Shown here piece by piece: positions 11,696-59,100 of a DNA stretch of 64,000 bases. This DNA comes from Styela clava (lineage: Eukaryota): contig NC_135253.1 in assembly GCF_964204865.1 (NCBI RefSeq), positions 13,764,001 through 13,828,000 on the forward strand. Direction: 5' to 3'. Both the position numbers and the translations under genes were made by a program. Under the pieces are notes generated by a model. The model was given only the letters and a program-made list of their open reading frames with translations, made no database searches and had not been told where the DNA came from. The number at the start of each line of letters is the position of its first letter. Position 1 is the stretch's first letter.

Positions 11696-13103
11696 ATTCA
11701 TGTTACGTTTTTATTGAAATGCCTATGGTATATATTGAAGTTTGTCAGTACTCTCAGTATGCTTCCCAGCTTTTCAAATTTGAGGGCTGGTACATATTTT
11801 GCTATTAGCGATAAAACTAAACTAAATAAAAATGTGTTATTTATTTGACTTACCACCTGTACCGGAAGATAAGCCATTTTTGTATATTCGAATACAATTC
11901 TATTCAAATTATTCACTAATTAGGGGTGCATTTAATTGGATGGGGAAATCACTGATCACGCTATATCCAATTCACAAAATGTAGTATCGCCTATAAAATT
12001 AATACTAAGAGCACCAAAATTTACATCTAGAAGCGACAATTTTGGGACAGTCAGAAATAAATTACCAGATACTGTAAAGCTGTAATAGGAGCCCGTACTC
12101 CCTAAAAGCTTTCTAGAATCCAAAGGCGTCATATAAAACGAATATTACATGTATCCATCCATAATAAATCTGTGAATAGGTGATGTGGGAATGCTTAATT
12201 TACACGAATTGCCATGACTCTGGCTCACAAATCTCAATTTTGTTTTTATTCATTTTCCATATCAATTATATATTAAAAAACACTTACAATACCTATATAT
12301 ATATAGTAATTTCCATAAAAATAGTCCTCGCTGCCTATCGCAGATCTTTGTGAGTAAGTCGCCTTTTTTCGACGTTTTATTACAGTTACTCTTTCCATTT
12401 TGGGAATATGGGATAAAGCTTCACCAGTTGAGCAACAAGGCGTTCGTAACAACGCGTTAATTATCTTGTTATTGAGAAATTTGATCTCAGTTTCAATGTG
12501 ATGCACGAAAGTTATTATTCTCTATTCTATTCATCAGAACACTTCCCTGAGCGTGATGTCATGAACAACGCTTTTAATGGGAAGTAACGAGGATTTCCGT
12601 CAGACCATATTTTATGATGAGATAACCCAATGGGAGATATTGTGCGCAACACAAAATTTTTTGAACTAGTGTTTTCATTGCCAGGCAATAATATATGTAT
12701 GTATTCATCATATTGTTCAGATTGCATATTACAAAGCACTTCGAGTTGACGAAATTTCCGTCTCGAATTTAGACTACGAAGTTTCTGAAAACACGACTTC
12801 TGGTCCGACCTCAATATAATGTTTACCATGACCACGCATTACAATGTAGAAGTCATCTTGATTTAAAGATTTTAGGTGCTTACAGAGTCTTGTTCCAAAA
12901 TAGTATGCAAAAACTAAAGAACAATGTTTCTTGGATAAATGATAGATTTTTCTGATTTAATTTCTGGTTTTAGCTTTTATGAAAATCTAACAATGCCAAT
13001 TTATGTCCAGCTGCAAGACCAAAGCTACCCAAAATATTTGTTGAACCGAAACCGGTCATGCCGTTCAGAAAGTGATAATTAGGTATACTATAATGGAGGT
13101 TTC

Positions 13104-13136
13104 TTCCGGAATTCTGAAAAACTTAGCTTTAAAAGG
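13104..13136 (+). promoter_or_regulatory. Putative core promoter of peptide gene 1
   Basis: Palindromic TTCCGGAA (ETS core) at 13104-13111 followed by TATA-like TTTAAAAG at 13128; same arrangement at the paralog. Confidence 0.4.
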
Positions 13137-13209
13137 AGCAGTTTGAAATCTGGAAGCACATTTGTTGGCCTTGGTTTAATAGTCGATATATATCAAAAGC
13201 AGCCAAAAT

Positions 13210-14382
13210 ATGAAATCACTTGTACTTATTTTGGGGTTGGTGTTGCTCGCGGTCAGTTTTGGCGACGGTTACTATCACCGTAGACGTTACCACCACTCCT
13301 ACCATGCCCATCATCATTACGCGCAGTATAACCGATTCTCCCGATCCCTTACGTCTCTTTATCGCATCGGAAGAGGATTGCGAGTCACTGGGAACAGACT
13401 TATTGGTCTTTATCGTTTGTACAGGTATTGAATTAGTGATTAATATCTTGACCTCACAAATATATTTTATTCGTGAAACACTATTTATAAAATTTTGATG
13501 TTTCTGCATCAAAATTTTCAAACTACGCACAGATAAAAGTTGCGCAAGTTTTAGGGCAAATCTAACAAAAAATCAATTAGCAAAATTTTGAAAAATGACA
13601 AAATTATTATTTGTTTTGTCAGTTTGAGACCACAATTCAGTTTTTGAATAGTATTAAATATTTATATTCAATAATAAAGATAAACCAAAACATTTCTTCA
13701 AAATTATATCGTAAATCGTTACGCCTTCAATCTCTATTCTAAATTATTATGGACAAACTTGATTTATATAAGGTTCCATTTTTGATCCCCAAATATATCG
13801 ACAAAGCTATATATTTTTGCAATAGAATACTAATAACATCCACGTTTTTTAGACGCATGCTGATTAACATGCATCATTACGGGTACCATGGTGACGAAGA
13901 CGACTTGTCTTTACTTGATGAAGATACTAGTTCGTTTGAGGTGAGACCGAATTGAAAATAATATAATAAAGTTAATCGAAGCCTTTTGCATTTCACGAGT
14001 AAAGTTCAAAAACTCGTTTTGAATGGAAAATAATAATTATCAAATTCCGTTTCCGTTACAGAAAGATGAAATGAACATGCCAGAACAACTAGCTGATAAC
14101 GCCGGTAAGTTATATTATAAATCAAATGTACATAATAATTTTATTACAACATTTATTTCTATTCCAACGGGGGCCAATGACTGGCCCTTATGATTATAAT
14201 ACACAATTTGTAAGTCAGCATACATCTTTGGCATATTTTTAGCAATCAGGCGCAACTAGATAAACTTGACTAATAAGACTTCAACTATTACGATTAATGT
14301 GATAACTGTAATGTATGATTTTATCTTTATAGAAGACAAGGACGATGGTCAAGCAGAAGATGATATATCCATGACGGAATAG
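13210..14382 (+). CDS. Secreted His/Tyr/Arg-rich cationic peptide precursor with acidic C-terminal propiece (131 aa); candidate antimicrobial peptide
   Basis: Exons 13210-13424, 13853-13940, 14062-14104, 14333-14382 (GT-AG, 396 nt). Protein: MKSLVLILGLVLLAVSFGDG|YYHRRRYHHSYHAHHHYAQYNRFSRSLTSLYRIGRGLRVTGNRLIGLYRLYRRMLINMHHYGYH|G|DEDDLSLLDEDTSSFEKDEMNMPEQLADNAEDKDDGQAEDDISMTE. AATAAA near 14470. Confidence 0.85.
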
Positions 14383-14790
14383 ATCAATTGTTGAAGATAC
14401 TGAAAGTCGAATCTTCTCGTTTTAACATTGCAATACATTTTATGCATGAAAAATATATATGGTATATATAATAAAAATATTTGGACAACTTCATATATGA
14501 GTCAGTGTTTGGTGTTACTTCATTTCGAGTCTCGATTTAGGTCGATTCTCTGAACTGGGTCTTGAATTCAATTTTATCAGCCTGTAGAGCGTAGGTAATG
14601 AGAAATCTTCTATATATAATAAAGATTATCGAAGCAAAGTCAATCATAATGCGCACACAGCCGTGGCCTAAACACCAGTATGGTTGTATAATATTCAACA
14701 GGAAGTTTGCTTCCAATTGCACGCTATCGGGTGTTGGTCGAGCGCGCAAAATCACCTTCTCGTTAAATTTTCTAGCTTTGACCTGTAGAG

Positions 14791-15985
14791 TAGGGTTGCC
14801 ATACCGTCCGGAAAATTTAGGGTTAAATTTTGCGTCCGGAAAGAATTTAAAAAAATGCTCTAATGTCCGGAATTTTACTGCATTTGCAATCGTACCGTGC
14901 ACACTGCTAATACTACGAGGTTGTGTGGAATTATGATGTAACAGAGCGTTCCTTATCAATGATGTTCACCACTTGGAACTTTCTGATTATTATTCGCTGA
15001 CTGTTTTACTCGTTTCGTTGTGCAGCTGCAAGTGTATTTGATAGCAGCTAGTTCCTTGTTAAATTAGCTAAATACAGAAGTTTTATACCACGAAGTTTTA
15101 CTTGTGGATTTTCTATTTGAATAGGAAGCAAGTCAGGAATTCGGGATCGAAAGTGCTAGTCCCTGGAGCTTTTTGGTTCAGTTAGTCTGGTGGTAAATTA
15201 CTTTGTTTTTTGAAGTACGCATTTTTATTTGGGTTGTATTTATTGTTAATAAAAAAAGATATTATTTTAAATGGCTAATTTTAAACGAAAGTACACATTC
15301 ACTAACGAGATGCGAGAAAAACATCCATGTTTTAGAAAAAGCAGGAATGATTATGGGGCAGAATGCTTGGTTTGCGAATCAGGAACCTATATATATATAT
15401 CTGTCGTGCACAATGGTAATGGTGATTTAAACACACATCTGCAATCAGAAAAACATCGCAAAGCAGTAAGAGTGGCTGTTGCATCAACGAAAATGACAAA
15501 TTATTTTGTTACAGCAGGAAGTAAATGCGAAGATGAAATCACTGCCGCAGAAGGCACGCTTGCATTTCACGCTGTTAATCATCATCATAGCTTTTTGTCC
15601 ATGGACTGTACATCTGATTTACTTGAAAATATTTTCCCTGATTCTAATGTAGCGAAGAAGTTTAGTAGTGACCGCACAAAGACAGAAAAAGTTGTTACTA
15701 GCGTACTTGCGCAATATTCTATTGATGCTGTTCTGAAAAGTTTTGAAGAAAACGATATCGCGTACTTTGGCGTTGCAACAGATGGCAGCAATCACAATGA
15801 ACTGAAATTACTATAATTATTCAATGTTTTGACTGGAGGAAAGGTGGCTTGCAATCAAAATTGATGAGTTTACAAACAAGGCAAACGAGACTGCCGACAC
15901 AATTTCCACTTATGTAAGAGACACCTTAGAAAAAATGATGCTTTTGAAAAAATGTGTGGCATTTACAGGAGACAACTGTAAATGC
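14791..15985 (+). mobile_element. hAT (Blackjack-like) transposon 5' fragment with disrupted transposase
   Basis: Left end TAGGGTTGCCA with repeated GTCCGGAA. ORF 15271-15816 has Zn finger C-x2-C...H-x5-H and YFGVATDGSNH (first catalytic D), then frameshifted CVAFTGDNC. Confidence 0.8.
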
Positions 15986-16163
15986 CTTATTGAAGAGAAT
16001 TAGATCTCCAGAAAAATATGCATGGTCAAAATAGTAAATTTGCAGTGACTTGACTTACAAGCGTGTATGTAATTTGTTTTAAGCTGTAATCACTGGGCTT
16101 ACTTTTTGGCACAACCTAATTCTCAATATTATTTTCCACTCTGAACTTGAGATTCATTTAGAG

Positions 16164-16961
16164 CAGTGGTCGGCAAACTTTATGTACTTGCGGGCCAAAT
16201 ATACACATTTCCGGTAGCGCGCGGGCCGCAATAATTCCACTTTCGAACAATCATTACATTAAACTCCCAATTATGGCGCATTCGCACCTTCTATTGCTGT
16301 GTTAAAAGTCCGCCACAATGAGATGTGTATGTGGCGTTTTTTCGAAATATTATCTGACAATACATTGTTTTTATTTACCTATTATCAATGTGACGGATGA
16401 TGTTTTTATGGCAACTTGCCCGCGGTACGTCGTCCAAATGACTAGTATAAAATTTATTGTAAGTGTAATGCATTTTAGATTAAGCTGCTGACAGCAATAT
16501 GAGCTTCTGAACGTGCAGAATACACGTTTTGCACTGTCGCACAAATGAGCTGTGGCTTAGTCTCGGGTATCGGGGTCGAATTTTCGATGAGACGTTTCGT
16601 AACGAGTAGAACATTAAATACCTTAAATATTTGCGATGCTGACCGGACATATGAAGCTGGTTTTGGAATGCGCGAGAAAGAAAAATATATTTGCGTCCAA
16701 GCACTTTGGAATCGTCGCGAACCCTCCGTTTCCAAGACAATTTTAATATCAAAATTAACCCGAACGGCATAGAACTGACGCTACTCATTTCAAAACAAGC
16801 GTCGTACAGCAGCACTTGTTATCACATAAATCTGTGTGTGGACAATAATAAATTAAGGATCAATTTTTGTTATATGTATTAAATGTCGGGTCTATCGAGG
16901 GCCGCAATAAATTAGCTCGCCGGCCGCATTCGGCCCGCGGGCCGCAGTTTGCCGACCCCTG
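16164..16961. mobile_element. hAT (Charlie-like) MITE
   Basis: TIR CAGTGGTCGGCAAAC / GTTTGCCGACCCCTG; perfect 8-bp TSD ATTTAGAG. Confidence 0.9.
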
Positions 16962-17071
16962 ATTTAGAGCTATATTTAGAGAGTGCCCGCCTGGCGCGTT
17001 GGAATGAGTATCGTACAGCGTTTGCAGCCTTAGAATTTCGGTAGCGCATATATATGGTCTCGTGAAAATAT

Positions 17072-17162
17072 GGAGCTCCGGAAGTATGTGCACCAAGATG
17101 GCGCACAACCTGAACATAGTATAGGTTGTGCGCCATCTTGGTGCACATACCTCGGGAGCGCC
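17072..17162. mobile_element. Minimal (91 bp) hairpin Merlin-type MITE
   Basis: Near-perfect palindrome GGAGCTCCGGAAGTATGTGCACCAAGATGGCGCACAACC...; TSD GAAAATA(T/C). Confidence 0.75.
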
Positions 17163-18630
17163 GAAAATACTCATGCACTGCCCGGAATTTTGCTTCTTCA
17201 AATATGGTAACCCTATTGTAGAGTCAAATATTGTGCGAAATAGGTGAACAAATGTCACTGAAAAACGTTTTTCATTTTTGTAGACTTTGCGTAATATCAA
17301 GTCTTTGATCATTTTTGTTAAGTTTCGATCAGTGTCGCAAAAAAGTGGTAGCAAGGAGGAATCCAAAACCACTGCAGTATTCTGAGTCCTATGCTGGCCA
17401 AATCCAGGCCATTTCGACAAAACTTCCATCGCCATCCGCTATCGACTCCTAATAGCCTATATATTAATAGCTGATAAAACCATTTGACATCAAAATTGTG
17501 TTATACATTGTGTTAGCCGGCAATAGCTGTTGAAGCCAAATGAGTTGTCCTTTCCGTTGTAGTCAAATATAAAATATCTTACTATTTGCTATAATTAATT
17601 CATTTATGAATCGGTCTGATTTCATAAACACAATTTTTTGAAGCTAATAAAGGAATCGTGAGCTTAAGCTGAAATATTTGAACGTTTCGATGTTGATATA
17701 TCTTAGTTCTATCCTAATTATATATATAAAAGAACTTGTCAGAACCCTCGTCACAAAGAAGCAATATTTTTGTCCACTGTGCTCGTGTATAGGCCAACGC
17801 TATTTTTCTACAAAAGAGATGCTGCAATGCTTCAACCATTCAAACGATACAGTATGGATACACTGTTATTTATAACCTCCTGAAAGATGCTGAAAGCTAT
17901 TTGACTGATTGCTTTATATCAGAATTAGGACATACTTTACTGCTCTACGTGAATAATTTGTTTTGGCTTGAGCGATTATTTTTGAACTCGAGTCTCTTTT
18001 AGCCGTTGAGACGTAAGCGCGTTTACAGCTTTGCTCTAAAAAACTAATTTCCAGAAACTATTTGCTCCAGTCAAGTACACTAACCAACACATGTGTTTAT
18101 CAAAATCTTCCATTTTTTTTTTATCCAACTCCAACTTAGTATATAATGAAATATTAAGTACAAATGTAATGTGAGCATGAAATCGGACGAGCAACCTTGA
18201 TCAAAAGATTTTATGTGATTTATCAGTAATTTCTATGAATGACAATGTGAAGAAGGTCTGTCATTATGTGGAAAAATAAGCACATATACTGTATTTTCAT
18301 TTACTTGGCACTTAGTACAACTACATTGAAAAAAAAATCGTTTTTTTCAATTTAGCACAGAGACACTGTAATGTTATTGAAGGGTGTCCGACATCACATA
18401 ATATTGGAGAATCATATTACTTCGATCGTGTCATGGATTCAGCAACAGCATTTTTTTCAATTTTATCGACATTGCCACGCAGACAAAGTTAGCTTACTAT
18501 CAATCCAGCATGCCCAATTCATACATGTATGATGGCAATATGATCTGTAGGATATAGTTGTTCCGCGATAAAACGAATATAATTTTACAACACTAAATTT
18601 TGTGAAAAATTTTTTTTAAGAGGAAATGAT

Positions 18631-18656
18631 TTCCGGAAACTATTTTTTATAAAAAG
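18631..18656 (+). promoter_or_regulatory. Putative core promoter of peptide gene 2
   Basis: TTCCGGAA at 18631-18638 and TATAAAA at 18648, about 50 bp upstream of the ATG. Confidence 0.45.
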
Positions 18657-18701
18657 AAAACACATGAAGTTCTTTATACAGTTCCTGATGTGAGAGTCAA
18701 C

Positions 18702-20449
18702 ATGAATCTGAAAACATCTATCTTTATTTTGTTCATCACATTCCTTGTTTGTGACATCGGAGGTGCTATTCGTGGCTCAAAGAGACGACGAAGTTACGTT
18801 GCCGCCAGAGCCCTACTAAAACTACGTCGTATTGGAATAAATCTGCGTGCAACTGGTAGTAAGATCCTTCGTCTTTACTCTCTGTACAGGTATGGCTTAC
18901 ATTAAAATATTTGTCCGCGGCTGTTGAGTGTATTACGCGAGTTATAAAAAGTAAGATTCCATGCTAGTATAATTTATCAGAATGTACAGGTATGGCCTAA
19001 ATTAAAATCTTTTTCCACGGCTGTTAATTAAGTGTATTACACAAGCTTGTCTATGGGAAACGTACCATGGGATGAGACGGGACAGCACACATTTGTATTT
19101 CCCATGGGAGACGTGGGACACGAAAACCGTATGATTTTCGAGAAAATGCTGATAAAACAATTTGTCATGGACTTCGTGTCCATATATTTGAGCATAGCTC
19201 TCTTGTTAGTTATAAAGAGCAAAATATATTCAGCATTGACAGCATTAACAATATACTTCGTGAAGGGGATGATGGACACATGTATAATAGTAGTAATTTA
19301 GTATATATACAATATATATAATAGTAGTAATATAGTAATTTAGTAGACGCTAAACCTGAATTTAGTAATTTTTATTGAATTTTATACCAATTGGGATCCC
19401 ATGGGATGGGGTGGGACAGGCATAATTGCTATGGGATGGGAATGAGACAAGAAAATATGTCCTGTGGACAAGCCTGGTATTACATGAGTAAAAAACTCAA
19501 GACTTTACGCAAGTATAATTTATCAGAATGATTTGAAGATTCACAAAGGGTTCAAAATTTCTCGGAATACTGTGAATCTAAAAAACAAACTCTTCAGACA
19601 AAAGCAAGCAGACCGGTCACATAAAGTCGTGGTCCATCGGGGATATTGGCTTTAAAATAAAACACCATTATAACTGACATGCATTTATTCACAGCAATCT
19701 CTTCAACTTTGCTCGAAGCTGAGTCAGCAGCTCCCCATCTATACTGAACCCCTCATACCGGCAGTTATATTGAAGGGAACAAGCGTTCATTTATACACAA
19801 TTTATGAAAACCCAACAAATGATTTAAATATTTCTGTTCCAGGCGTTTTGTTCTACGGACAAGAAAAAGGGGTGACACCGATGATATTGACGATATCAAC
19901 GATGTCAACCCATCAGAAGTAAGTATACCCTAACTAGTATAAGCAGTTGTATTGAAAAGTATAGCTTGAACCCGGATTCTACTTATAACATACACATTTT
20001 TAATGCTATAAAGACTAAGCCTTTGGTGAATATCACAACTCGCGATCGCGCTACAGCATACTAATATAAAAACGATTATCTTTAGGATGAATCCGAATCT
20101 CTCGAGAAGTTCGAAGAAATGCCGGGTATGAAGTTTTCTTATTATCTTATCATCTAGAATTCTAGAACGACTGTGAAATGAACAATTTTGAACGCTTCAG
20201 TGGGTAGAAATGTATAAATTGAATATGGGTAGGGTATATCACCGGGTATAGCAGTACTTACAACATAGCCTATAGATTCTATGTATCACGCTGGAGATTG
20301 TCAAACACCATTTACAAAAAGAGCTCTGGAACGATATAATTAAAATTAATTAGTACTATATAAAAAAAAAAACTTTATCGGCTTGACAGATATTATAAAC
20401 AAGGTCTCACATACTATTTTTGATTTCAAATATGCTAGAAGAGGAATGA
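18702..20449 (+). CDS. Secreted Arg/Lys-rich cationic peptide precursor with acidic propiece (~104 aa); paralog of the 13210 gene
   Basis: Exons 18702-18889, 19843-19918, 20086-20125, 20439-20449, with the same intron phases 2,0,1. Protein: MNLKTSIFILFITFLVCDIGG|AIRGSKRRRSYVAARALLKLRRIGINLRATGSKILRLYSLYRRFVLRTRKR|G|DTDDIDDINDVNPSEDESESLEKFEEMPEEE. Last exon less certain. Confidence 0.8.
19042..19476. mobile_element. hAT-type MITE in intron 1 of peptide gene 2
   Basis: TIR CAAGCTTGTCTATGGGA / TCCTGTGGACAAGCCTG; 8-bp TSD GTATTACA; subterminal ATGGG repeats. Confidence 0.85.
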
Positions 20450-23054: not shown

Positions 23055-25898
23055 TATAGCAACTAACCCCCAAATGTACCCCATTTCATGTTAAAAATAT
23101 GAAAACAAAGTTAATTTTCCCCAAAATTCGAACAAAGACTTTCGTAGGAATCAAATTACACCAGGTTTAAGAACATAACAGGTTCCATCCAGTCATTATC
23201 AAATTAAAATCTATATTCTCAAGACCTTTGGCACTGATTGAAATAATTATATGTGAGTTCCCATCCGTACGATGTACCTAATTACCCTTGTTGAGATAAT
23301 AGGAATTTCTGTTTATAACGTGAATCACGAGCTCACGTTTACAGCACTTAATTGGATTTATGATCAACGTATAAATACGACTCCGATATCTTTCGATAGG
23401 GAGAAGGAAGATGATGTAAACCATTCTAAGCTAGTTTGGATAAATGTTATAAGATTTATATTCTGTGTATCGTGGAAATCTGAGAATAAAATCAAACAGA
23501 GTTTTCTCAATATATATGCTATAAATGATTAATTAATATAGCAACTAACCCCCAAATGTACCCCATTTCATGTTAAAAATATGAAAACAAAGTTAATTTT
23601 CCCCAAAATTCGAACAAAGACTTTCGTAGGAATCAAATTACACCAGGTTTAAGAACATAACAGGTTCCATCCAGTCATTATCAAATTAAAATCTATATTC
23701 TCAAGACCTTTGGCACTGATTGAAATAATTATATGTGAGTTCCCATCCGTACGATGTACCTAATTACCCTTGTTGAGATAATAGGAATTTCTGTTTATAA
23801 CGTGAATCACGAGCTCACGTTTACAGCATTTAATTGGATTTATGATCAACGTATAAATACGACTCCGATATCTTTCGATAGGGAGAAGGAAGATGATGTA
23901 AACCATTCTAAGCTAGTCTGGATAAATGTTTTAAGATTAGTATTCTGTGTGTTGTGGAAATTTACGAATAAAAACATATAGAGATTTTTAACGCATCTTC
24001 ATTCACGTGGGCGTTGAAGCTGAAGGGTGAACGGGTAACTTGCAAGTCAGAGACAATCTACGAAATAGCAATATACGGTAACATCACATTCATCTAACAA
24101 TCATTTATGCTATAAATGGTGACAAAGCCGACTTGAATTAATCTTCTGAAACGGACCAGATCAACGGACAATAATCAGGACAAGCAACAATTGGACGGAA
24201 TCAACCAAAAAGCTGACCAAGCGAAAGCTTTCAACAATTGCCGAGAAACAGTCTCTACAATACGTGCGAAAATCAAATTCGACCAATTTACGAACGTCGG
24301 GGAGATTCAAATTGCCTGGAACAACGATTGGAGTAGCAAATTGCTGACAAGCCGAAATATTCAAAAACATTATGAAAAGACAATAATCTCAATTGAAAAC
24401 AGTTGAACTATGGTAACGGACTCTGGAAACGTTAAAATCATGAATATGGACTGTATTGAACATCGATCGAAATGAACTCTTTTAGAACATGATATATGTT
24501 CGAGGTGAAAAACCTAATCAAAAACGAACTGTTGAAAACAATGAACTATATACATGGACTGTTTTACTGTAAATTACGCGCTCTATTCCGAACAATAGAG
24601 AAATTGTCGCGCTTACCTATTCAGGAGCATGTAATTCTACAATTTGTTTCATGATTTGCAGGTTTTTCTCCTCATTGAGACAGACATTTTTCATTCTTCC
24701 ACTATTACTAAGGTAAAGTACTTCTTTTTCTTCTTATATATATATACATGGCGTTTCATTCGGCTTTCAATTTTTATAAATTATTTAATGGTAACAACTT
24801 TGAATATTCTAATTTCAAATACCTTTAAAGAGATTTATATTATTGAATATTTGTGGTTAGAATTTCCTTTCGATTAAATAGATTTCGTTGGAATTAAAAT
24901 GCTCTCTAAAAGTAGATTCGAGCGAGTCATACTTTTAATTATTTACAAAGCCGTCATATAGAACGGTGAAATAATAAGCTCGTTAAACAAAAATTGTATC
25001 CAAAAGCGTTATTTTTTCAAAAAAGCCCTGAGATGGCGTAAACTTAAAAATACGTTTTTTCATCCCGACATGGGACAAGCATATATTGACCAACTAGGTC
25101 TACAAAATCGTAACAATGCGATAAAGCGAGTATAAGTATTTTAACTTAGCGAAATACATTAAATTGAAAATATGTTTTAACCGTCCAAACCAAAATTTTT
25201 CAAATAAAAATACGCCATCCTTCTGTAATTCTACTTTACAACCTTTACCCTTTCTATAAATTCTTCTTTACTTCAATGTCTTGTCTCATTGTAGATCATA
25301 TACATTTAAATATTTTTTTTTTGACCTATATCATTAATTTTAGCATTGTGTATTGTATTTTTCTATATATTTTCAATTTATTAGAGGTGCCAAATCTTTA
25401 AACTTCCAGTTAGTAAGATGGGGAGATAATATAGCAACTAACCCCCAAATGTACCCCATTTCATGTTAAAAATATGAAAACAAAGTTAATTTTCCCCAAA
25501 ATTCGAACAAAGACTTTCGTAGGAATCAAATTACACCAGGTTTAAGAACATAACAGGTTCCATCCAGTCATTATCAAATTAAAATCTATATTCTCAAGAC
25601 CTTTGGCACTGATTGAAATAATTATATGTGAGTTCCCATCCGTACGATGTACCTAATTACCCTTGTTGAGATAATAGGAATTTCTGTTTATAACGTGAAT
25701 CACGAGCTCACGTTTACAGCATTTAATTGGATTTATGATCAACGTATAAATACGACTCCGATATCTTTCGATAGGGAGAAGGAAGATGATGTAAACCATT
25801 CTAAGCTAGTCTGGATAAATGTTATAAGATTTATATTCTGTGTATCGTGGAAATCTGAGAATAAAATCAAACAGAGTTTTCTCAATATATATGCTATA
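23055..25898 (+). mobile_element. Non-autonomous LTR retroelement with three LTRs
   Basis: LTRs 23055-23523, 23537-24114 and 25430-25898, each TATAGCA...TGCTATA; PBS-like TGGTGAC at 24117; PPT AAGATGGGGAGA just before 25430; 4-bp TSD CCAG. Confidence 0.85.
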
Positions 25899-37295: not shown

Positions 37296-39911
37296 TTACT
37301 CGGATTTTGCTGAAAGCCATTCTGATATGCTTTTTCCATCCCTTTTCCACCAGTCCAGCCTTCTGCGGATGTTTTCTAGAGATTGCTGTACTTTGCGTTC
37401 TGCTCCTATTGGTGGATTTTTCTCAAAAAAATCTTTGATTTCTGCAGCTTTCTGTTCAGAGCTGTAATTCTCTGTGGTCATTTGTACCAGTCGATTTATA
37501 AGAAAACTTCCTTTAAACATATCATGCAACTTTTCCCAGTTTTTCTTCACAAATTCCCATGTAATATCTCGACCAATGGGATTGCTGATAGCAGCTGACC
37601 CGATCATGAATACCTTATCATTTGAACGAACCTTGTCAGTCATAGCAAAATCCAAAACTTTGGTGATCAGTTCAGGTTTCTTGACAGATCCTACAGACCT
37701 CTCAATACGCTCTTTTTCTTCATGCAAATCCACTTTTTCATGGAGCTCTAAAAGTTTATCCAATTCACCAGGACCACCGTGAGACACAATCGTGCTATAA
37801 ACAGGTGATCGTAGGTCAGCAACTATACTGCTTTTCTGATTTAGATGATTTTCAAATCTCTTGTTAGCTTCAGCTATTGTTTTTTCACAACCAAATCGAC
37901 CAACACGGCGAATCATCAAGCTTCTCAGCATTGCAGTAAGATGACCTTCTCCAGATTGTGGATCCCAACCTAAAGTTGTATTTGTAGAATCATACAAGGA
38001 CAAGATATATTTTTTGAACTTATTTAAGGCATCTTCATCATTCCAAAGCAAAACTGACAGTGAACCGATATTCGCATCCAGATCACACCAAACAGAATAG
38101 TTGGTTTCGTTTTCATATGCCGATAAAGCATCAAGAAAATCTGTTGTCGGTGCAATACCTGATGCAGCTAAAGCGAACATGTCATTTTCAAACCCAAGAC
38201 GATCACGTTCGGGCAATGACTTATCTTTGATCGCTGGAAGAAGAAGTTCCAGAAGTTCATGACTGTATTGAACACGATAAAAACCATATGTGCCTGGGTT
38301 GGCTTTGATCCAACTTGTTTTTGCAACATTTTCTAGGGTAACTTCCATGGTTTCATCTTTCAGAAGAACATCTTTCACAGGTTTGCTGGGTGATTCGTAT
38401 GTCGAAAATGAAATAGGAATGGACCACATCGGTGACTTGCCATCTTTTATGGTTTTCTGATTTGCATAGAATTTCTTCTGTGACAATTTCAATGTGACTG
38501 AATTGTCAGTCCTAGATTTCACTGTCACACTCACAACAGGAAATCCCATTTGTCTTGTCCATGACCCCATAACATCTCTTACTGGCTTTCCACTCGCATC
38601 ACCGAGAGCATCCCAGAGATCTTCAGTAAATGCATTTTTGTATGCATGCTGCTTCAAATAGTTATGCATTCCTTTACGGAAGTTTTCATCTCCTATCCAG
38701 TTATGCAACATCCTGATCACAGAGGCACCTTTGCTGTATGAAATTGCATCAAATATTTCATCAATTTCCTCGGGATGACCAACTGGAACCTCAATTGGAT
38801 GACTGTTGTCCAAAGCATCCAAATCTATTCCTCGCATATAATCGTGCGATACAAACTGAGTCCAAATATCAAATTTCGGGTGACAATGATCTGTGGCCAA
38901 ATATTCCATGAAGGAAGCAAAACCCTCATTTAACCAAAGATGGGTCCACCATTCCATTGTAACCAGATTACCAAACCATTGATGAGCAAGCTCATGGCAA
39001 ACAACAAGTGAAACCCATTGTCGTGCATGTGCTGATGAGTTGTCTTCATCAATCAACAGAGCAGATTCTCTATAAGTAACCAGCCCCCAATTTTCCATAG
39101 CCCCAGCACAAAAATCAGCAATCGCAATCAGATCCATCTTCGGTAAAGGATAAGGTATGTTGAAATAATCTTCGTAATACGGCAGTGCTTTTACTGCAAC
39201 ATCTAGAGCAAACTGACCCTGTTTTTTTTTACCCAATGGAGTATAAACTCGAACAGGCAAACCTTTTGGCGTTTTGCCTTCAACAAAATCAAATTCTCCA
39301 ACAACAAAAGCAAGCAGGTACGTAGACATGATTGGAGTACGAGCATATTTAACTACTTTGAACTCCTTTTCAAAGTAATCTGCTTCCGAGATAACATTCA
39401 TGTTTGACAAAGCCACACGATCCTTGGGCACTACAAGTGTAACATCAAATGTGGCTTTCAGTGCAGGTTCATCCCAACATGGAAAACTCCTCCGTGCATC
39501 TGTTGCCTCAAATTGTGTCACAGCACCATAACGAGCTTCACCATCAACCATGTAGCGACTTCTATAAAAACCTTTCATTTTATCATTAAGCTCACCTTTG
39601 AAAAGGATGCTGAGAACTCCACTCCCCTGTGCGAGTGTACTGGCAAATTTGATAATAACTTTTTCTTGAGATTCATCAAATTCAATTGCAGATGACTCAA
39701 ATATTTTCATATCTTTTTGACAGTAAGTGACAGAAGATATTTTGATGTCCATGCTGTTCATGACAACCTCAGCTGTGGGCTCTTTTACATCAACCTCAAT
39801 ATCCACCTTCCCATCAAAAGTAAATTCTTCAATACAGGGCTTCAGCCATAAATTATAATTTATAGGCAACACATTTGTCGGGAGACGCGAAAATGGTTTT
39901 TTGGTAGCCAT
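37296..39911 (-). CDS. NPEPPS: Puromycin-sensitive aminopeptidase (M1 family), 871 aa, no CDS introns
   Basis: TQFEATDARRSFPCWDEP, GAMENWG, HELAHQWFGNLVTMEWW, WLNEGFA, FDAISYSKGAS; no signal peptide or TM segment. Confidence 0.95.
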   Translation of the reverse strand: MATKKPFSRLPTNVLPINYNLWLKPCIEEFTFDGKVDIEVDVKEPTAEVVMNSMDIKISSVTYCQKDMKIFESSAIEFDESQEKVIIKFASTLAQGSGVLSILFKGELNDKMKGFYRSRYMVDGEARYGAVTQFEATDARRSFPCWDEPALKATFDVTLVVPKDRVALSNMNVISEADYFEKEFKVVKYARTPIMSTYLLAFVVGEFDFVEGKTPKGLPVRVYTPLGKKKQGQFALDVAVKALPYYEDYFNIPYPLPKMDLIAIADFCAGAMENWGLVTYRESALLIDEDNSSAHARQWVSLVVCHELAHQWFGNLVTMEWWTHLWLNEGFASFMEYLATDHCHPKFDIWTQFVSHDYMRGIDLDALDNSHPIEVPVGHPEEIDEIFDAISYSKGASVIRMLHNWIGDENFRKGMHNYLKQHAYKNAFTEDLWDALGDASGKPVRDVMGSWTRQMGFPVVSVTVKSRTDNSVTLKLSQKKFYANQKTIKDGKSPMWSIPISFSTYESPSKPVKDVLLKDETMEVTLENVAKTSWIKANPGTYGFYRVQYSHELLELLLPAIKDKSLPERDRLGFENDMFALAASGIAPTTDFLDALSAYENETNYSVWCDLDANIGSLSVLLWNDEDALNKFKKYILSLYDSTNTTLGWDPQSGEGHLTAMLRSLMIRRVGRFGCEKTIAEANKRFENHLNQKSSIVADLRSPVYSTIVSHGGPGELDKLLELHEKVDLHEEKERIERSVGSVKKPELITKVLDFAMTDKVRSNDKVFMIGSAAISNPIGRDITWEFVKKNWEKLHDMFKGSFLINRLVQMTTENYSSEQKAAEIKDFFEKNPPIGAERKVQQSLENIRRRLDWWKRDGKSISEWLSAKSE

Positions 39912-40345
39912 ATTTTCAAAATTCTGTAGTCAAGTCGATAATAATCAAACGAGCAGTTTCAGAGTTTAAAGCAGAAAGCTGCGGTAAGCACCAATACAAT
40001 ACAGGAACAATCGGTAATAGAGAAGTAGCGCAGAGACGCAAATATAGGCCATGCGTAAAAAAGTGTTCCCAAAATCCTGTATGAGAGAGGGAGAAAAAGA
40101 ATTTACGGTATGTCTTTTGCTTTATTGACGAACCGGAAAACGCAAACATATACGGTTTTTATTTAGCGATTCGGATATTTATTTCCAACATGCAAAAATT
40201 GATGCACTGAGGAATTCAAAATTGTATGAAGACATGAAAATAATAGTGAGATAATATATAATAAAAATGTACGTACGTAGCAACAAATGAGTGTTCAGAG
40301 TCAAGTTTATCTAGTACTTGAGAAAAAAACATTAAATTTTGTATA

Positions 40346-45714: not shown

Positions 45715-48700
45715 ACAAAAGGGGTATTACTCTAGTGATTAGATCTGTCCGACACATAAGTTGTTGGTTTGTTGGTCTGAATTGTATAAGATGTGATTGA
45801 CTGACAACTGATTTTGTCCCAAACTCGTGAACCGACTCTGTACCATAGATCAGGGCTACTCAACTATTTTTACCGGAGATCCGCATATTTAACAAAACAA
45901 AACAATAAAATTTCAAAAATATTTGGATCCGGTCTTTCCAAAAATTATATTTCGGCATCCTTAAACACGCACTTCCTCGACCGAATAATGATTATCAGCC
46001 AATCAAGATTGTTTATTTTGGCATTATAGTTCTTTTCATTTATATTTAAATCTATACAAGTGATTTTATAAAAGAAAACTTCAAAAGTGGGGCTAATGGT
46101 CCAAAATAAAGAATTAGATGCGGTCCGAATCGAATACCCGAAAGGTCCGGATTCGGACCGCGGTCCGCCAGTTGAGTAGCCCTGCCATAGATTACACTAC
46201 GAAATTTGGAAGACGTAAAATAGCTTTTTATTTGTAGTTTTCGACGATATACAGAATACAATCCTGAAACCTTCTATCCTTGAAAATATATCAAACCAAT
46301 TTATATTCGTTAATCAAACAGCCAATAAATAAAAAACGTGATCTCGTGGCCCACATGTTTAACAGTATCGTAAATATGAGTAAAAAAGTATTTAAATGAG
46401 TTGTACCAGTCGGAACATAAGTTTTTTTATCTGAGAAATAAATCTTGAGTTGATTATCGCAGGACAGACAAGTGTTTTTTCAAACTTAAATTGTATATAT
46501 ACTGCGTAATGTGTTTCCTACAATACTCTTTTACCACTAACAAATTTTTTGTCAATTGTCTTTGATTGAAACTGACAATCTTGTCTATAAATAAAGAGTA
46601 ATGCAAAATGTTGTGTTACTCCATTCATGAATTAAAATACCGGTAGGCTAAATTATAATGGAATGAATTGCCTGACAAATATATATATATATGTTGAATG
46701 AAAATTTTAAAAATCCTGTGTTACCCAATGAATTTAGCTATCCAAGTCATTTCTTTACGATAATATTCTTCTGCTTCTTGTATGGTTGTGGTGAAAGAAT
46801 GAGGCGACGTTTTAGGCATAGCCAACATTGTCAGACCAGCACTCACTCCAAGAACTCCAAATAATGCCTGAAATTTGAATAAACAATTTTTTTTGTACTG
46901 CAAGATAACACATAATTAATAAGTTTGGGCTAAATCACTTTTGTTTAGGCCATAGAGCTTGTGATAATTTTAGATGGAGATTCTCATTTAACGTGGCAAC
47001 ATAGTTTAATCCAAGTCAATTCACAACGGCCAATATTTTATATAATATCTGAGCCTACAGTATTTAGTGCGGCAATGAAATGTTATAATGACAGTTACTA
47101 CGTCTAGCTATTTCGTATACATGCATATGTGCTTTCCGACACAAACGCAAGTAAAGGGATAGTCACATTTCTATAATGCAATATATCTGTAACAGTAACT
47201 GAGAACTCACTTGCGTAACCCATATCGTATCAAACTTTGCGTGAATAACAAATGGAATGATTATTGCACCCAGCCTCGCGCACGTGGATGTGATCGCCAT
47301 GGCCTTCCCTCTGTAACGTAAGCAAACAAATTACTATGACCAATACAATGTTTCAATTTCTCATAAGTAGACTATCTATGTAATAGAAGTATATAGTGAT
47401 TGGCAGCACCCGGATAATGAAAAGTCACTTCTATAGATATGGACATACCTTGTGATAGTCGGAAAAACATCGTTCGTGTATTGGTATGTGGCGTTGAAAG
47501 CAATTGTTGTGAAGAGTTTTCCAGCAATGGAAGCCCATCGCATAATTCCTAATGCAGCTGTTAATGAGTACATTACAGGATAGAATGAGGAATTAGGATA
47601 TGCTCATTATGTCGTCAATCCAAGGCCGGATTTACCATTGTAAAAGGTGGGTTGAAGCCTGGAGACCTCAGGTCTCGACTGCCAACGACTCTAGGAATTA
47701 TCAGAGCGAAGAGAAGTAAATATAAAAGTAATAGCTCTCAAAACTCTCAGATTTTATTCCCTGGAATACAACAGGTCCAGTTTTTGAAAAGAAAAGAAAC
47801 AATAACAACAATTTATAAATCAGCTGATACATCTGCGTATATTTGATCATCAGATTCTACTTCATCGCAAAGTCTAATTACTCACTTTCACTTGTGCTAT
47901 CAATTTTTCCTGTAATCATTGTCACAACACATAATGAACCGGCACCAAACATTCCGACTATAAGACATTGATTTGCTCCATATCTTTTATTGATGATAGC
48001 GAACACAACCACCGAAATGATTTCAGTCGAACCATTCAAAGCTGCATTAAGATAAGGATTCCCTGTAAAGGTAACATATATAAGCATATTGTACTTTCCT
48101 GCCGAAACAGACCATGTTATAGATCGCAATGCCAGTTAGCCATGTCTGTACTTTTGATGCCAGTGACCGTTTTTTTTTGCGATTATTGAAAATAAGAAAA
48201 AATACAAATGTTAGCCTGCTAAACATGTTTGATCAGATTTTATACTATTCCAACTCACGACTATTCACATTTTTCCCAACAGCGAATTCCACTTTATAAC
48301 TGTAGTTATGGGGGAAGGTGCTATCAGGAGTCTGAATTTACTGATTTTTTTTCAGTAAACTTTATTAGTTTTGGAGAAAAAATAACGGTCGGTGATTGGT
48401 CATACATGGATTTGGTGTAAAATGGATTGATTTGGATTTCTAAAAGTAGAAACTATCTGTGTGTGTGATTTAAACACTAAATTAAATTTACATATCGATC
48501 ACACTTTTCCAATAGCGTACGCTACGTTCCGTAGCGTATTTTCAGGTAACTTACCTATAAGCGAACCGACGTTTAGAACAAGTCCGTAGTAAACACAGTT
48601 AACGGCAAACCAATTATACATCACAACAAGTGATACGATTCTTATGAATGGTCGGCGAAAGAGATCGGTCAGATGAGCTCTGTTGTTGACGAATTTCATT

Positions 48701-51612
48701 GTTTTCTTTTCTGTTTCGAGAATTGTTCGCCAATCTTCGTCTTTTATAATTGTACCCTTACTTTTTGCATATCGGTTCAGTACTTTTCTGGCTTCTAATT
48801 CCCTTCCTTTCATAAGTAGCCAGCTGGAGATAATTGCGACGCAGGTAAATATAAGAAACTTCATATTGAAAGTGCAAAATGGGGAAGAGAAAGAAATGGA
48901 AAATTAACTTTTCAAAGTAAGGAAAAATTGGTTCATGAACGCCGAGAAGTAGAGATAAACTACGAATGGATGTGGAAGGTAAAAGTTCGGGGTCTTACCT
49001 AGGCGTTTCTGGTATAAATGGCCACGTGATAATAAACATCAGCGACAATAGACCGCAAGTCAGATTTAAATCTCTCCAGTCACGCAAGAAATATGCCGCC
49101 ACGGGAAATAAAGTGTGAGTAATTGAAGATACAAGAGGCGTGAATGTGGCAACAGTAGGTCTCAATTTTTGTCCCGCTATTTCACTTGCTGAGAAAGAAT
49201 TTAGTAAATATACAGTAATCAGGATGTAGAGTGGTAAAATAAATCAAGTTGGATACAATTTAACAACGTAACTAACCGTAGGAAAACGCAGCACCGTATA
49301 GCGTCACACTTGTAGCACCTTCCAGAAAACGAAATACGCAATAAACAGTGAGTGTCGAAGCTAATGTGCAGCCTATTCCAGATCCCATTAATCCAACAGA
49401 AAGAATGAGAAGAGCTAGTTTACGTCCAAACCTTTTGAAAAAAGTTATTTCTATTATTAACAGTTTGCATAATCGTTACATTAAATTCCAAAGGGAAAGA
49501 GAAGCTATTTTAACAATTTTTTTTTAACTATTGAGCGTATTCACCATTACGATACTTGTCGATTCTTGCACAAAATTCCAAATACAAATTTTAACCAGAA
49601 AATTTGCTGCAGCAGCGATTTCAATAAGGCATAAATGAACGAATGAGGTAGTGGTCGAAACCAGTATAGTCTGAAGTATTTTAGTCAGAGGTTGCATAAA
49701 ACTATCTCATAAGTCTTTTGTATATTTAGAGGTATAACTCACCAGTCAAAGATATATCCAGCTGGGATAGAACCAACGAGTATTCCAACAAAATACAGCG
49801 AATGTATCACAGAATTTAATACATATTTGTCGCAAACCAGGTCCCACTGGAAAAAAATTGAAAAAAAGTTAATTTGGTTTAGATCTAAACAACCGTATTT
49901 GCTATTCCGTTTTAATCAGACTGAATCCAAACATTTAAAATAACATGCTTCTATAAACTCTACACCCTTAAATAGGAGGCTGTGTCATTTTCAAAAATGT
50001 TATGCCTATACTAATATATAATAAGGCTTTGGTATCCGTAAAAATACATGCTAATATATAATATACGACCATTTATTCCCGTGTTACGCTCTTAAATTAG
50101 GGCTGAGTCTCTTTAATTCGTCGAAGTCACTTATAAAAACGCTAAAAAGCCCTTTTCTTGTTCAAAAATTAAAAAAGTCATGCGTCTTAAAAGTAGCTAT
50201 GACTCTTCTAATGACATTGTGCCCATCTAAAAGCGTCATTCTCTTCTTAAAACGGACTATGCCCGATTTTTAAAAGTCTATAGGTATTTAAAAAGTGCAA
50301 ACCGTTTTTTAAATTGATTGGTAAATTGATAGTATATATCAGTACCTCTGACACAACTGTCTTCTCGTAGTAACTCTTGTCGTAATAATAACCATTGTCG
50401 CATTTCATTATTCTATTATCAGAAGCTTCGGTTAGGCAGGATAAATTTCCAGATATCAAACATTCCGTTGTGTTGTAGATATATCGATGACAGGAATCTT
50501 CCAACTTAAAGAATATTTTATAATCAGATTGCTTTAAGCCTTTAAGAAGGTTTAATTATATGACAACCTCAACTAAGCATTTAAAGTAATCGCTTCAAGA
50601 TTACCAAATATGACTTACACATTTTAATAAATAAAGTGACTTTGGTGGTAGCTTGTTATTCGGAAGAGGTTACGTAGATTGAAGGGAGACAAATAGTGTC
50701 AAATGTTGCAATTTGAGACATACGAAATATAGGAACGCCAAGAGATTGCTGCATTCAGAGCAATATAATATTCTTAGATGAATACAGTTTTAAAATTGTT
50801 GTAAAATTATTACCTCAGTGTTATTGTAATGACACCAAAAAAAGTCATGAATTGCGTAACCTATTTTGAAGACCTATTTTTTACCTATCTTATGCCATAA
50901 CGCAAGCAAGCAGTTCCATTCGGAACGTTATAAAATCAAAGTTTTTTTCTACTCACTGGAATGGCTAAAGATGTTATCTCATCTTCACTCACGTTTTTGA
51001 AAAGTGTATTGTTGTCAAATTCAGGTAACAAACATCTGTCGAGTATGGAATACGATTAACTTTAGGTAGGGATCGCATAAATGTTCCACATAAATGCTTC
51101 ATATTTTATTCTCTCATGATAGATTTATAATATAATTCAATATAACTATTTAATTCGCCGAATACCTACATGTTTTTAATTACACACTTCACCAAAGTAC
51201 ATCAATAATCTTTGCTAAGTAAATATAACATTCAATTTTTTCAAAATTTAAACTTGGAACCCCGCCTAACTGTCTGTTCTCGGTTGCGTCTGTTAATTCC
51301 AATTCGCTCCCATCTCGCAAATCGTCATTAAATATCAAAATGTCATATCCATCTTTGGATGTTGAACCCTATCAATAAGCTAAATAATTTTGCCCACCCT
51401 TCGTTATCAGAATCATGGCTATTACAGTATTACTTTCAAGATGTTATCAAACCAATATAACGTAAACCTCACCTGTGTTTTGGTATAGCATTGTAGAATA
51501 CACCTGTTTGCGGTGTGATAGTTGCTGTTGCCGATAACAGTGTAACGGAAATTATTGAAAAAATCTGAATGTTATTAACACTCAATATGCTTTCAAGTTT
51601 TTCCACATCCAT
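45715..51612 (-). CDS. SLC22/OCT-family organic cation transporter, ~12 exons
   Basis: Spliced motifs HR/CLLPE, KTVVSE/WDLVCD, D.FGRK, RFLEG, SEIAGQKLR, RDWRDL, FIPETPR/WLL..GR..EA, DLFRRPFIR, YYGL, GNPYLN, DVFPTITR, MPKT. Last exon uncertain (~45500-45780). Confidence 0.9.
45851..46184. mobile_element. hAT MITE
   Basis: CAGGGCTACTCAACT / AGTTGAGTAGCCCTG; 8-bp TSD CCATAGAT; related copy at ~56420-56791. Confidence 0.9.
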
Positions 51613-56177: not shown

Positions 56178-59100
56178 ATGTCTACCACAGCTTTATTACT
56201 GTGGATATGGACCCTGCTGGCTGCCAATATTGGGTAAGTTCTATAACCTTTTATGATCATTCTTTTCGTCCATATAAATACAGTTTTTGTAATATTTCCT
56301 TTTTATATTTTTACAGGACAAATGCGTGCTCAATAGGTATGTAATTTTATTATTCAAAATTGTAGGCTGCATTTTAATATCTAACTCGTAATGGAGACAA
56401 AATTTCTACTAGTTCCTTCGTACTCAACTGGCGGACCGCGATCCGAGAGCGGTCCGTTTGCGTATTTGATCTAGACCGCACATAATTATTTATCATTAGA
56501 TCATTGGCCCCACTTTGGATCTGTGAAGGTTTCCTTGTATTAAATGGCTTTTAGAGTTTTAAAGGTTATTTTATATTTTGCATAAATTTACTTCTGACTA
56601 TATATGAAAAAGAACTGTAACACCATAATAAACTATGCAAATAGTGCCATCATGATTAGGAAATAATCGTTGGCCGACTGAGGAAGTGCGCGTTTTAGGA
56701 TGTCGAAATATAATTTCTGTAAAAGACCGAACCCCCACTAATTTTGAAGTTTTGTATACGAATCTTTGGTAAAATTAGTTGAGTAGCCCTGTTATATAGT
56801 ACGAATATTCTCGTAGTCATGTGAAGCAATTGCGACTGAAGTACCAACATTTTTATATTTTCACATTTCATATATCCACTATCACCTCGAATTGACCCAA
56901 AGTTGATTATTTGAGTATATCTTTAAACTAAAAAGCAGTGCTAAAATTGATCAAGGTTTAAAAAGTACATTAAAAGTCAAAAGTGGGCAAAAAAGAAAAT
57001 GAGCCATTTGCGAGCTCGTTTTGGTTAATTAAAAATTGATGAGTGTTCACATTTCAGTCTAAATAATATTCAGAATTTATTTCGTTGGACTTTTTTCATT
57101 TTACTTTATTTTATTTTCACGAAAACCTGATGTAACACTTGTCAATAAAGCTGAATGTTTTCTTTTATACATTTTTCCTATGCTTGCTGCTGATCTATTT
57201 TTCAAATATTCAGAACATATTTTTGAAAGATTTTTTACTCGCATTTTTATTTCCCATTCTAAGGCGACTTGGATATTGGAGAATGTTCTACCCTCATCGG
57301 ACCAGAGTTCTCAAATATTGACTGCACAGCAGATGGGTCTAATATGTAAGTGTACCAACTATGTATATATAAATATATATTTGAAACCATTTTTAAGTCA
57401 TATTTTTGGGGGAATTTATGGAAGAAATTTCGATTATATTTAGTGTTATTTTCTGTGGCATACTATGGCACTCTAATAACAACGACTGTCAAATCCCATT
57501 ATCGACAAAGAACCGTTCATCTAACCGGGTAAATTGTATCAGATAAATAACTCACGCTGGCCGCAAAAAATTAGTGTAATATGTATAATCCGTGGTTTGG
57601 AATTCCAGATTTGTCAAAGACGCCGGACGCAAAATAAAATATGGGTTGTCACAGCCTCTAGTGCAATATAATTCAATCATCGCTTTTTCACTCAAGTCAC
57701 TTGATCTACTTTTCAGAAATTTAAAGAGCATTGAGATATAATCTCAATTGTGTGAAATACACCATATATACACCGTACAAATTTTTTTTCGGTTGAAATA
57801 CAATTGAAAGTAAAATAAAAAAGTTATAATCCATGAATATCAAATTGACGAGCGAACTTAGTTATTCACGTGATAGCATGACGGCAGTTTGGATCAATCC
57901 GTTTGTGTACTCGCGAAACCAATGGATTTTATTCTCTGAAATAACGTCGTTGTGTACGTTTTCCAATCCGGTGTAACATAATCTTTTATGCTAGTACATG
58001 CCTGTTTATTAGCGAAATGATTATCTCCAGAATGTAACGTCATCGAACATTTACGTTAGTGCATGTCCGTTTATTATTACCAACTAGATGATAATTATCA
58101 ACAATGGTCAAAAATACTTGTCATTTATTAAATCGTCTTTATTTCCTTTCAAGAAAATGTGTGGCAAGATGTTTAACCGGATATAAGTTCAAAGACAAAG
58201 ATCCCGGGTATGAATATGAAGTCAATTGTGATACTGGCGAAGGAAGCTGGTCCGAAGACTCCTTTTCTGAATGTGTCGGTGCGTACATTTAATAACATAA
58301 TTTTTGCTGCCTATAAGTTATCCATGTTAATACTATTGATGACGTTGGAAAAATGTATCTTAGAATAATAGACGTCCATGCTTCAGTAGCCTACAGGTGT
58401 ATATTTCGCGCACTTTTTACGCACGTACAGTTTGCACTTACTTCTGGGCTCTACTCCCAGATTATCATGATTGCTTGAAATTGAAAAAACCTTGCAACGT
58501 TTGCATACATTTCCGATTAGTAGATTGATATATATTAATTTATTTATAACCAACGCGATTATCTATACCAGTGCATTTTGGTGCTAAAGCAAATAATATC
58601 TGTGCTCCTAGTTGCTCTATATGTTTTTCTAATATTTTTCAAACTTTTCTGAAATCTTATGCACTCAACTGTCTTATCTTGACCCTAATGATATTGACCC
58701 GAGTTCATCGCATCGATGTTCAAAATTAAAGAATTCCAATTTGTGGTGTGAGATAAAGTGACAGTTTCAATGAGCTAAATCTGAACAATTGCGCTTTGTT
58801 TATCACTCAAATGTCGAGGGAGATAATGTGCATTACCTGTGGGGCGGTAGTCGAATATCAGTCGCGCTGACATTACGCAATTTGGGTCATGTTAAGAGAG
58901 ATACTACTTTACCTGTATGCAATTAATATTTATCCAACCTAAAGCCTATTTATTAAGCAATATCTCTCTATTGACCCCATCAAAATTGATCTCTTCCATC
59001 TACAGACGCGAGATGCGAGATCAACGACCCTGAACATGGGTTTGCAGATTGCGACTACGTAGGCACAACAAGAATGTGTAGTCTGAAATGCGACTCTGAG

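Follow-up and report, generated by a model that had tools for sequence, protein, structure and literature searches.

Two genes in a 64,000-nucleotide stretch of the genome of the ascidian Styela clava (RefSeq contig NC_135253.1; the whole stretch is referred to here as the window, and positions are those of the window), LOC144422026 (gene A) and LOC144422027 (gene B), both listed in RefSeq as 'uncharacterized', encode small proteins in which a cationic region gives way to an acidic tail at a Gly-Asp dipeptide. Does this dipeptide mark the point at which a mature peptide is released and amidated at its C-terminus? Judging from their sequences, gene A and gene B are tandem paralogs that very probably encode prepropeptides of cationic peptides secreted for host defence. 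That these defence-peptide precursors are cut between Gly and Asp and then amidated is, taken as a whole, somewhat probable, and is the reading that we favour. The processing rule itself has been put forward before: cleavage before acidic residues has been proposed for ascidian precursors generally (PMC7387483). The inference drawn in a preliminary description of this locus is thus not new, since the Asp-directed route was already in print; the genes themselves were previously uncharacterized.

Precursor architecture and the Gly-Asp junction

Gene A has four coding exons, separated by introns that are all GT-AG, and encodes a protein of 131 amino acids identical to RefSeq XP_077967869.1. Gene B also has four exons, and its assembled proteins match both RefSeq isoforms, of 107 (isoform X1) and 104 (isoform X2) amino acids. 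The two genes share the intron phases 2, 0 and 1, and 33 of 107 residues are identical (BLASTP). Their features are as follows.

13210..13424, + strand: gene A coding exon 1, predicted signal peptide (about residues 1–20), His/Tyr-rich arm and start of the cationic helix (gene model, splice joints, RefSeq)
13853..13940, + strand: gene A exon 2, closing stretch of the cationic region, then the Gly-Asp junction and the first part of the acidic tail (gene model, splice joints)
13890..13895, + strand: GGT GAC codons of gene A Gly85-Asp86, where the cut is predicted, with the putative amide-donor Gly (translation)
14062..14104, + strand: gene A exon 3, acidic tail (gene model, splice joints)
14333..14382, + strand: gene A exon 4, acidic tail and stop (gene model, splice joints)
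18702..18889, + strand: gene B coding exon 1, predicted signal peptide (about residues 1–21/22), KRRR cluster and cationic helix (gene model, splice joints, RefSeq)
19843..19918, + strand: gene B exon 2, R70-K71-R72 closing the cationic region, followed by the Gly-Asp junction and the first part of the acidic tail (gene model, splice joints)
19871..19876, + strand: gene B Gly73-Asp74 codons GGT GAC, immediately 3′ of the Lys-Arg pair, forming Arg-Gly-Asp with R72 (translation)
20086..20125, + strand: gene B exon 3, acidic tail (splice joints)
20430..20449, + strand: gene B exon 4, spliced at acceptor 20430 in the 107-residue isoform X1 and at acceptor 20439 (AG) in the 104-residue isoform X2 (splice joints, RefSeq)

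Both proteins comprise a hydrophobic N-terminus, a Cys-free cationic region, a Gly residue and an acidic tail. In each, hydrophobic residues 4–17 are followed by small residues, as read directly from the sequence. Signal-peptide cleavage follows the −3/−1 rule, with small residues at both positions, and these are present in both proteins at the aligned sites G20|Y21 (gene A) and A22|I23 (gene B); cleavage after G20 and A22 is most likely on this pattern. A cut after G18 of gene A, which aligns with a gene B site having Asp at −3, is possible instead. Cleavage after G20 would begin the gene A peptide with Tyr-Tyr-His, an X-X-His N-terminus of the copper/nickel-binding kind (ATCUN-type).

The predicted mature part of gene A (to H84) consists of 64 residues, including 12 Lys/Arg, 10 His and 11 Tyr and no acidic residue, and that of gene B (to R72) of 50 residues, with 18 Lys/Arg, 3 Tyr, no His and no Asp/Glu; the acidic tails comprise 46 residues (20 Asp/Glu) and 34 residues (17 Asp/Glu), respectively. 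Past the leader, gene A is laid out as a His/Tyr arm (residues 21–40), through which it is possibly copper-binding, then a predicted core helix, and finally a short segment again rich in His and Tyr. The core is the best-conserved segment (16 of 29 residues identical; 45–73 in gene A and 36–64 in gene B), and the tail is poorly conserved (3/14 identities in exon 3 and 2/16 in exon 4). Each mature part has a single Phe. Tyr, Arg and Lys are present in both proteins, and bromo-Trp is excluded because neither contains Trp. YRR is common to both genes and lies at the exon 1/2 join; basic clusters occupy residues 24–26 and 72–73 of gene A and residues 27–30, 42–43, 63–64 and 70–72 of gene B. Four R-x-x-R motifs are present in gene A and none in gene B.

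The preliminary description placed the cationic-to-acidic switch of both paralogs exactly at G|D within exon 2, in an interval (13853..19918) whose limits coincide with the start of gene A exon 2 and the end of gene B exon 2, and six-frame translation bears this out. YGYH-G-DEDD lies at 13878–13904 (gene A) and TRKR-G-DTDD at 19859–19885 (gene B), both on the + strand, and the charge flips exactly at G85-D86 and G73-D74. The cumulative charge is maximal at the residue right before the Gly (H84 and R72), no acidic residue precedes the junction Asp once position 19 (gene A) or 18 (gene B) is passed, and the two genes use the same Gly-Asp codons, GGT GAC.

When residues were shuffled within segments (100 000 trials), G|D fell at the switch in 5.5% of trials for gene A and 3.8% for gene B. 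The product of these frequencies, approximately 0.2%, assumes an independence that paralogs do not have; the junction is therefore to be read as one ancestral feature retained in two copies and not as two separate events. G-D-x-D-D is common to both genes, the 8–11 residues just upstream have diverged, and the stretch from YRR to the Gly differs between the genes by three residues in length and also in content. Retention of G-D-x-D-D in both paralogs provides modest evidence for more than chance.

As a separate observation, the gene B junction (19868–19876) reads Arg-Gly-Asp, an integrin-binding motif, and the equivalent in gene A is His-Gly-Asp. The Arg-Gly-Asp may be due to chance or may be relevant to the uncut precursor.

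Proposed maturation route

After removal of the signal peptide, the acidic tail (20 and 17 Asp/Glu in gene A and gene B, respectively) would shield the cationic part (12 and 18 Lys/Arg) while the precursor is stored, probably within granules of blood cells. An Asp-N-type endoprotease would cut at G|D and expose the terminal Gly, which peptidylglycine α-amidating monooxygenase (PAM) would convert to an amide, yielding His84-NH2 (gene A) and Arg72-NH2 (gene B). The predicted helix common to both peptides would bind and disrupt microbial membranes, and the His/Tyr arms of gene A would add pH- or metal-dependent activity and provide likely sites for the formation of 3,4-dihydroxyphenylalanine (DOPA). 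An amide at the G|D site is reasonably probable for gene A and slightly doubtful for gene B; these gradings reflect K71-R72, the YRR and RRR sites shared by both genes and the furin of Botryllus.

This route is plausible by analogy with other ascidian peptides. The preliminary description ascribed the same junction to clavanin and styelin precursors, which reportedly read ..HVF-G-DD and ..HAL-G-DM at this point. The processing that it ascribed to them does stand in print: cleavage takes place on the N-terminal side of D in styelins and of DD in clavanins (PMC7387483), and both are tabulated as C-amidated (PMC10608444). How an amide is formed from a terminal Gly, and that anionic pieces have a masking role, is also stated (PMC10608444). 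In Ciona, 17 of 22 candidate precursors have the order signal, cationic, anionic; three of them (KH.S908.1, KH.C7.94 and KH.L14.3) show Gly-Asp, in our reading of the table, either at the cationic part or immediately after it, and synthetic KH.S908.1 and KH.C7.94 peptides are antimicrobial (PMC7387483). Asp is the residue preferred by astacins at P1′, and other extracellular protease families are said to lack this specificity (PMC3186203); we therefore regard an astacin/meprin/tolloid-type metalloprotease as a natural candidate for the G|D cut. No enzyme cutting before Asp is named in the ascidian sources consulted.

Assessment of the route and its alternatives

Several observations weigh against this route. 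G85 and G73 are paired in six of nine matrix/gap settings, only by way of a three-residue gap, and are unpaired under MAFFT or with a gap-open penalty of 11. The claim that Gly-Asp is conserved despite diverged flanks thus stands as regards the flanks and depends on the alignment as regards the pairing. Gene A has another Gly-Asp at residues 18–19. No ortholog of either gene was found in any protein, profile or metagenome search, so that the comparison rests on two paralogs (n = 2). AlphaFold2, supplied with the two-sequence alignment, predicts a single helix (residues 40–80) with low confidence (mean predicted local distance difference test score 56.8), and the best 18-mer hydrophobic moments, 0.65 (gene A) and 0.60 (gene B), are not clearly above chance, being equalled by 160 and 778 of 2000 shuffles, respectively. 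Among the 22 Ciona candidates, again in our reading, the boundary is W-N-[E/Q] in 11 versus G-D in three, with another boundary or none in eight (PMC7387483). The Lys-Arg pair of gene B adjoins the Gly (R70-K71-R72-G73-D74), and both genes carry YRR and an N-terminal RRR/KRRR cluster, in addition to the four R-x-x-R motifs of gene A. Furin has been reported in Botryllus morula-cell granules, and the boundary epitope of botryllin is W-G-K-D, not G-D (PMC9966394).

The basic sites could instead be used by a proprotein convertase, cutting at K71-R72 of gene B and at YRR and/or the N-terminal RRR in both precursors, a route that we consider unlikely. In placing Lys-Arg ahead of Gly, gene B inverts the classic amidation signal, Gly-Lys-Arg, and presents an ordinary convertase site; a cut after K71-R72 would let the Gly depart with the tail and leave no amide, and a carboxypeptidase would then trim the basic residues. 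The products would be shorter and mostly free acids, with a core helix of approximately 30–45 residues, and gene A would also yield a small His/Tyr peptide (residues 74–84) that could still be amidated. Basic clusters occur in both genes, with RRR and YRR kept in both paralogs, and the known S. clava peptides have just 23–32 residues (PMC10608444); furin is found in ascidian morula-cell granules, where processing after release has been proposed (PMC9966394). However, gene B has no R-x-x-R motif, internal basic pairs are tolerated in mature ascidian peptides (synthetic Ci-MAM-A24 has RR near its end) and the Ciona boundaries showed acidic residues rather than basic motifs (PMC7387483). Convertase cleavage also gives no account of the Gly common to both genes. 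The preliminary description had named YRR as the rival site; it is indeed present in both genes, but K71-R72 before the gene B Gly and the RRR/KRRR cluster were overlooked. YRR lies within the predicted helix, which is a weak argument against its serving as a terminus.

A structural or metal-related role in place of killing, in which a Tyr/His-rich peptide would supply DOPA for tunic cross-linking, wound sealing or metal handling, is improbable, and processing at G|D might occur under it all the same. It would fit the composition of gene A, with its 11 Tyr and 10 His, and DOPA peptides of ascidian blood cells have been linked to cross-linking and wound healing (PMC3039461), but the helix core is retained in gene B despite the absence of His and the presence of only three Tyr, and the precursor layout is that of tested antimicrobial precursors (PMC7387483). 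A DOPA-based role is a lesser rival, and mainly one for gene A. More improbable still is that Gly-Asp is incidental, the inherited start of an acidic tail in a precursor secreted whole or nibbled from its tail end without a defined site. Shared ancestry of the paralogs, a per-gene chance level of 4–5% in the shuffles and the poor conservation of the rest of the tail in exons 3 and 4 speak for it; against it, G-D-x-D-D has been retained while the residues just upstream diverged, and such boundaries yield amidated peptides in S. clava (PMC7387483, PMC10608444). Cleavage before Asp followed by amidation is the best single guess because gene A and gene B have the layout of clavanin and styelin precursors and belong to the same species, and the shared processing route put forward in the preliminary description is partly supported, with a Gly-Asp pairing that varies with the alignment. 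Gene B, in which Lys-Arg and Gly|Asp stand back to back, offers a natural substrate with which to separate Asp-directed from Lys-Arg-directed maturation and to identify the protease.

Relation to known peptide families

The predicted layout of gene A and gene B places them, as regards architecture, among the linear cationic peptide precursors of ascidians; their sequences set them apart from clavanins and styelins alike and suggest a small new family. As in the class, a Cys-free cationic region is followed by an anionic C-terminal piece, and both genes have Gly-Asp at the cationic/acidic boundary, the junction of the clavanin/styelin type of processing. The predicted mature parts are 2–3 times longer than clavanins and styelins.

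Styelins A–E come from the same species, have a cationic helical region past the signal peptide and are reported to be cut before Asp and C-amidated, but are Phe-rich peptides of 31–32 residues (PMC10608444), unlike the Arg-rich gene A and gene B peptides of about 64 and 50 residues. No styelin was among the matches of the RefSeq-protein (P0003) or profile A1 searches, and length, composition and homology all place the two genes outside the styelins. Styelins bear bromotryptophan, DOPA and dihydroxy-Arg/Lys modifications; residues suited to all but the first of these are available in both genes. Clavanins and clavaspirin, also from S. clava, resemble gene A in its His-rich cationic character, and clavanins are cut before DD and amidated; their mature peptide is, however, a His/Phe-rich 23-mer, and gene B has no His. 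No clavanin-type Pfam match at E up to 10, no clavanin PDB chain and no clavanin in the P0003 and A1 searches was found, although short peptides can be missed by such searches. Clavanin precursors also have an N-terminal anionic piece, unlike gene A and gene B.

The linear cationic α-helical antimicrobial precursors of Ciona (Ci-MAM, Ci-PAP, KH.S908.1 and KH.C7.94) share the signal/cationic/anionic order, but mostly have the W-N-[E/Q] boundary, and no sequence homology to gene A or gene B was detected; the Ciona screen covered only precursors of 50–100 residues, compared with 131 for gene A and 104–107 for gene B (PMC7387483). Botryllin of Botryllus schlosseri likewise derives from a long styelid prepropeptide (158 residues) with an acidic C-terminal piece and is stored in morula-cell granules, but has a styelin-like mature part of 37 residues, and furin-type extracellular processing has been suggested for it (PMC9966394). 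Fish piscidins also have a signal, a mature peptide and a C-terminal prodomain and occur as tandem paralogs; since their mature parts span 22–65 residues, the long predicted mature forms have precedent (PMC7369796). Piscidins differ in exon layout, their first exon being untranslated, and no sequence relation to them is shown.

Work on the blood peptides of S. clava goes back to 1997, and the two genes add two candidate antimicrobial peptides with defined masses to look for: the calculated monoisotopic masses of the predicted amides, without modifications, are 8141.2 (residues 21–84) and 8313.2 (residues 19–84) for gene A and 6025.7 (residues 23–72) and 6096.7 (residues 22–72) for gene B. Salt tolerance is frequent among ascidian peptides of this class. 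A bolder proposal, speculative and rather unlikely in its entirety, is that the two genes constitute a third family of defence peptides in S. clava, amidated and of unusual length, whose release would depend on an Asp-N protease of the astacin type together with the amidating enzyme and not on the usual Gly-Lys-Arg convertase signal; gene A would join a histatin-like metallopeptide (ATCUN start, 10 His, and 11 Tyr serving as sites for DOPA) to a membrane helix of 40 residues. The W|N boundary of Ciona may belong to the same Asx-directed route.

Searches returned the two genes themselves. The P0001 query against longer proteins matched one of 214 candidates, gene A itself; the RefSeq-protein query (P0003) matched one of 12, itself; and profile A1 matched one of 16, gene B. 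A phmmer search of 1.84 billion representatives recovered only the query, none of 129 pattern matches in metagenome contigs was confirmed, the ESM Atlas gave no usable match for either protein and two matches among PDB sequences were at chance level (E = 0.63 and 0.79). No third paralog was found within the window (tblastn/blastn). No publication on the gene identifiers, the accession or the peptide motifs was found in a literature search that excluded most subscription journals and supplements.

Transcript support and neighbouring sequence

Gene A and gene B are transcribed and spliced. Contigs of four sequencing runs (X1, X5, X9 and X10) were presumed to be RNA, and splice joints alone were used as evidence. 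All three introns of gene A and introns 1–2 of gene B are joined in three of the four (runs X1, X5 and X9), the gene B joint 20125–20430 is seen in runs X1, X5 and X10, and the first intron of gene A is joined in run X10 as well. The gene B acceptor at 20430 reads AA in the present assembly, though it is used in three of the four runs and in RefSeq isoform X1; the assembly allele has probably lost its AG and would splice at the in-frame AG at 20439 (isoform X2). The base differences considered are 40 of 456, and the Gly-Asp codons may be polymorphic.

The joint at 20125, together with RefSeq, ruled out a three-exon, 111-residue read-through model of gene B. Run X10, labelled as coming from another organism, shows no differences at the gene A Gly-Asp codons; it was rejected as a source of orthologs and judged to be probable carry-over because of its depth of 3, its single difference in 298 nucleotides and its origin in the same study as run X9.

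Run X1 contigs reach at least 310 nucleotides upstream of the gene A start (12900–13209) and about 2.3 kb upstream of the gene B start (16388–18701), and may represent long 5′ ends, read-through or DNA. The palindrome TTCCGGAA, which we take to resemble ETS/STAT sites, occurs just twice in the window, at 13104–13111 and 18631–18638, 106 and 71 nucleotides upstream of the start codons of gene A and gene B, respectively. It is the sole 8-mer common to both 150-nucleotide upstream regions; a unique 8-mer of this kind was shared in 220 of 4842 random pairs, and as evidence the palindrome is weak because it was chosen after being seen.

Between the paralogs lies a 798-nucleotide non-autonomous DNA transposon (16164–16961) with terminal inverted repeats and an 8-nucleotide target duplication, ATTTAGAG. 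The segment 14791–15816, presumably a decayed hAT-type transposon, has a terminal-repeat-like motif at 14791 and an open reading frame of 181 residues containing Cys and His (15271–15816) with no Pfam match at the cut-off. A 450–470-nucleotide segment is present in three near-identical copies (97–99.6%) at 23055–23987 and 25427–25898. An intronless open reading frame for an 877-residue M1 aminopeptidase (Peptidase_M1, ERAP1_C) occupies 37296–39929 on the − strand, about 17 kb from gene B, with no link shown. Exons of other genes are found at 989–1318 (−), 48499–48903 (−), 58990–59268 (+) and 63377–63742 (+); their domains are low-density-lipoprotein-receptor-class-A-like, sugar/organic-ion-transporter-like and Sushi-like, all below the cut-off, and C8, above it.

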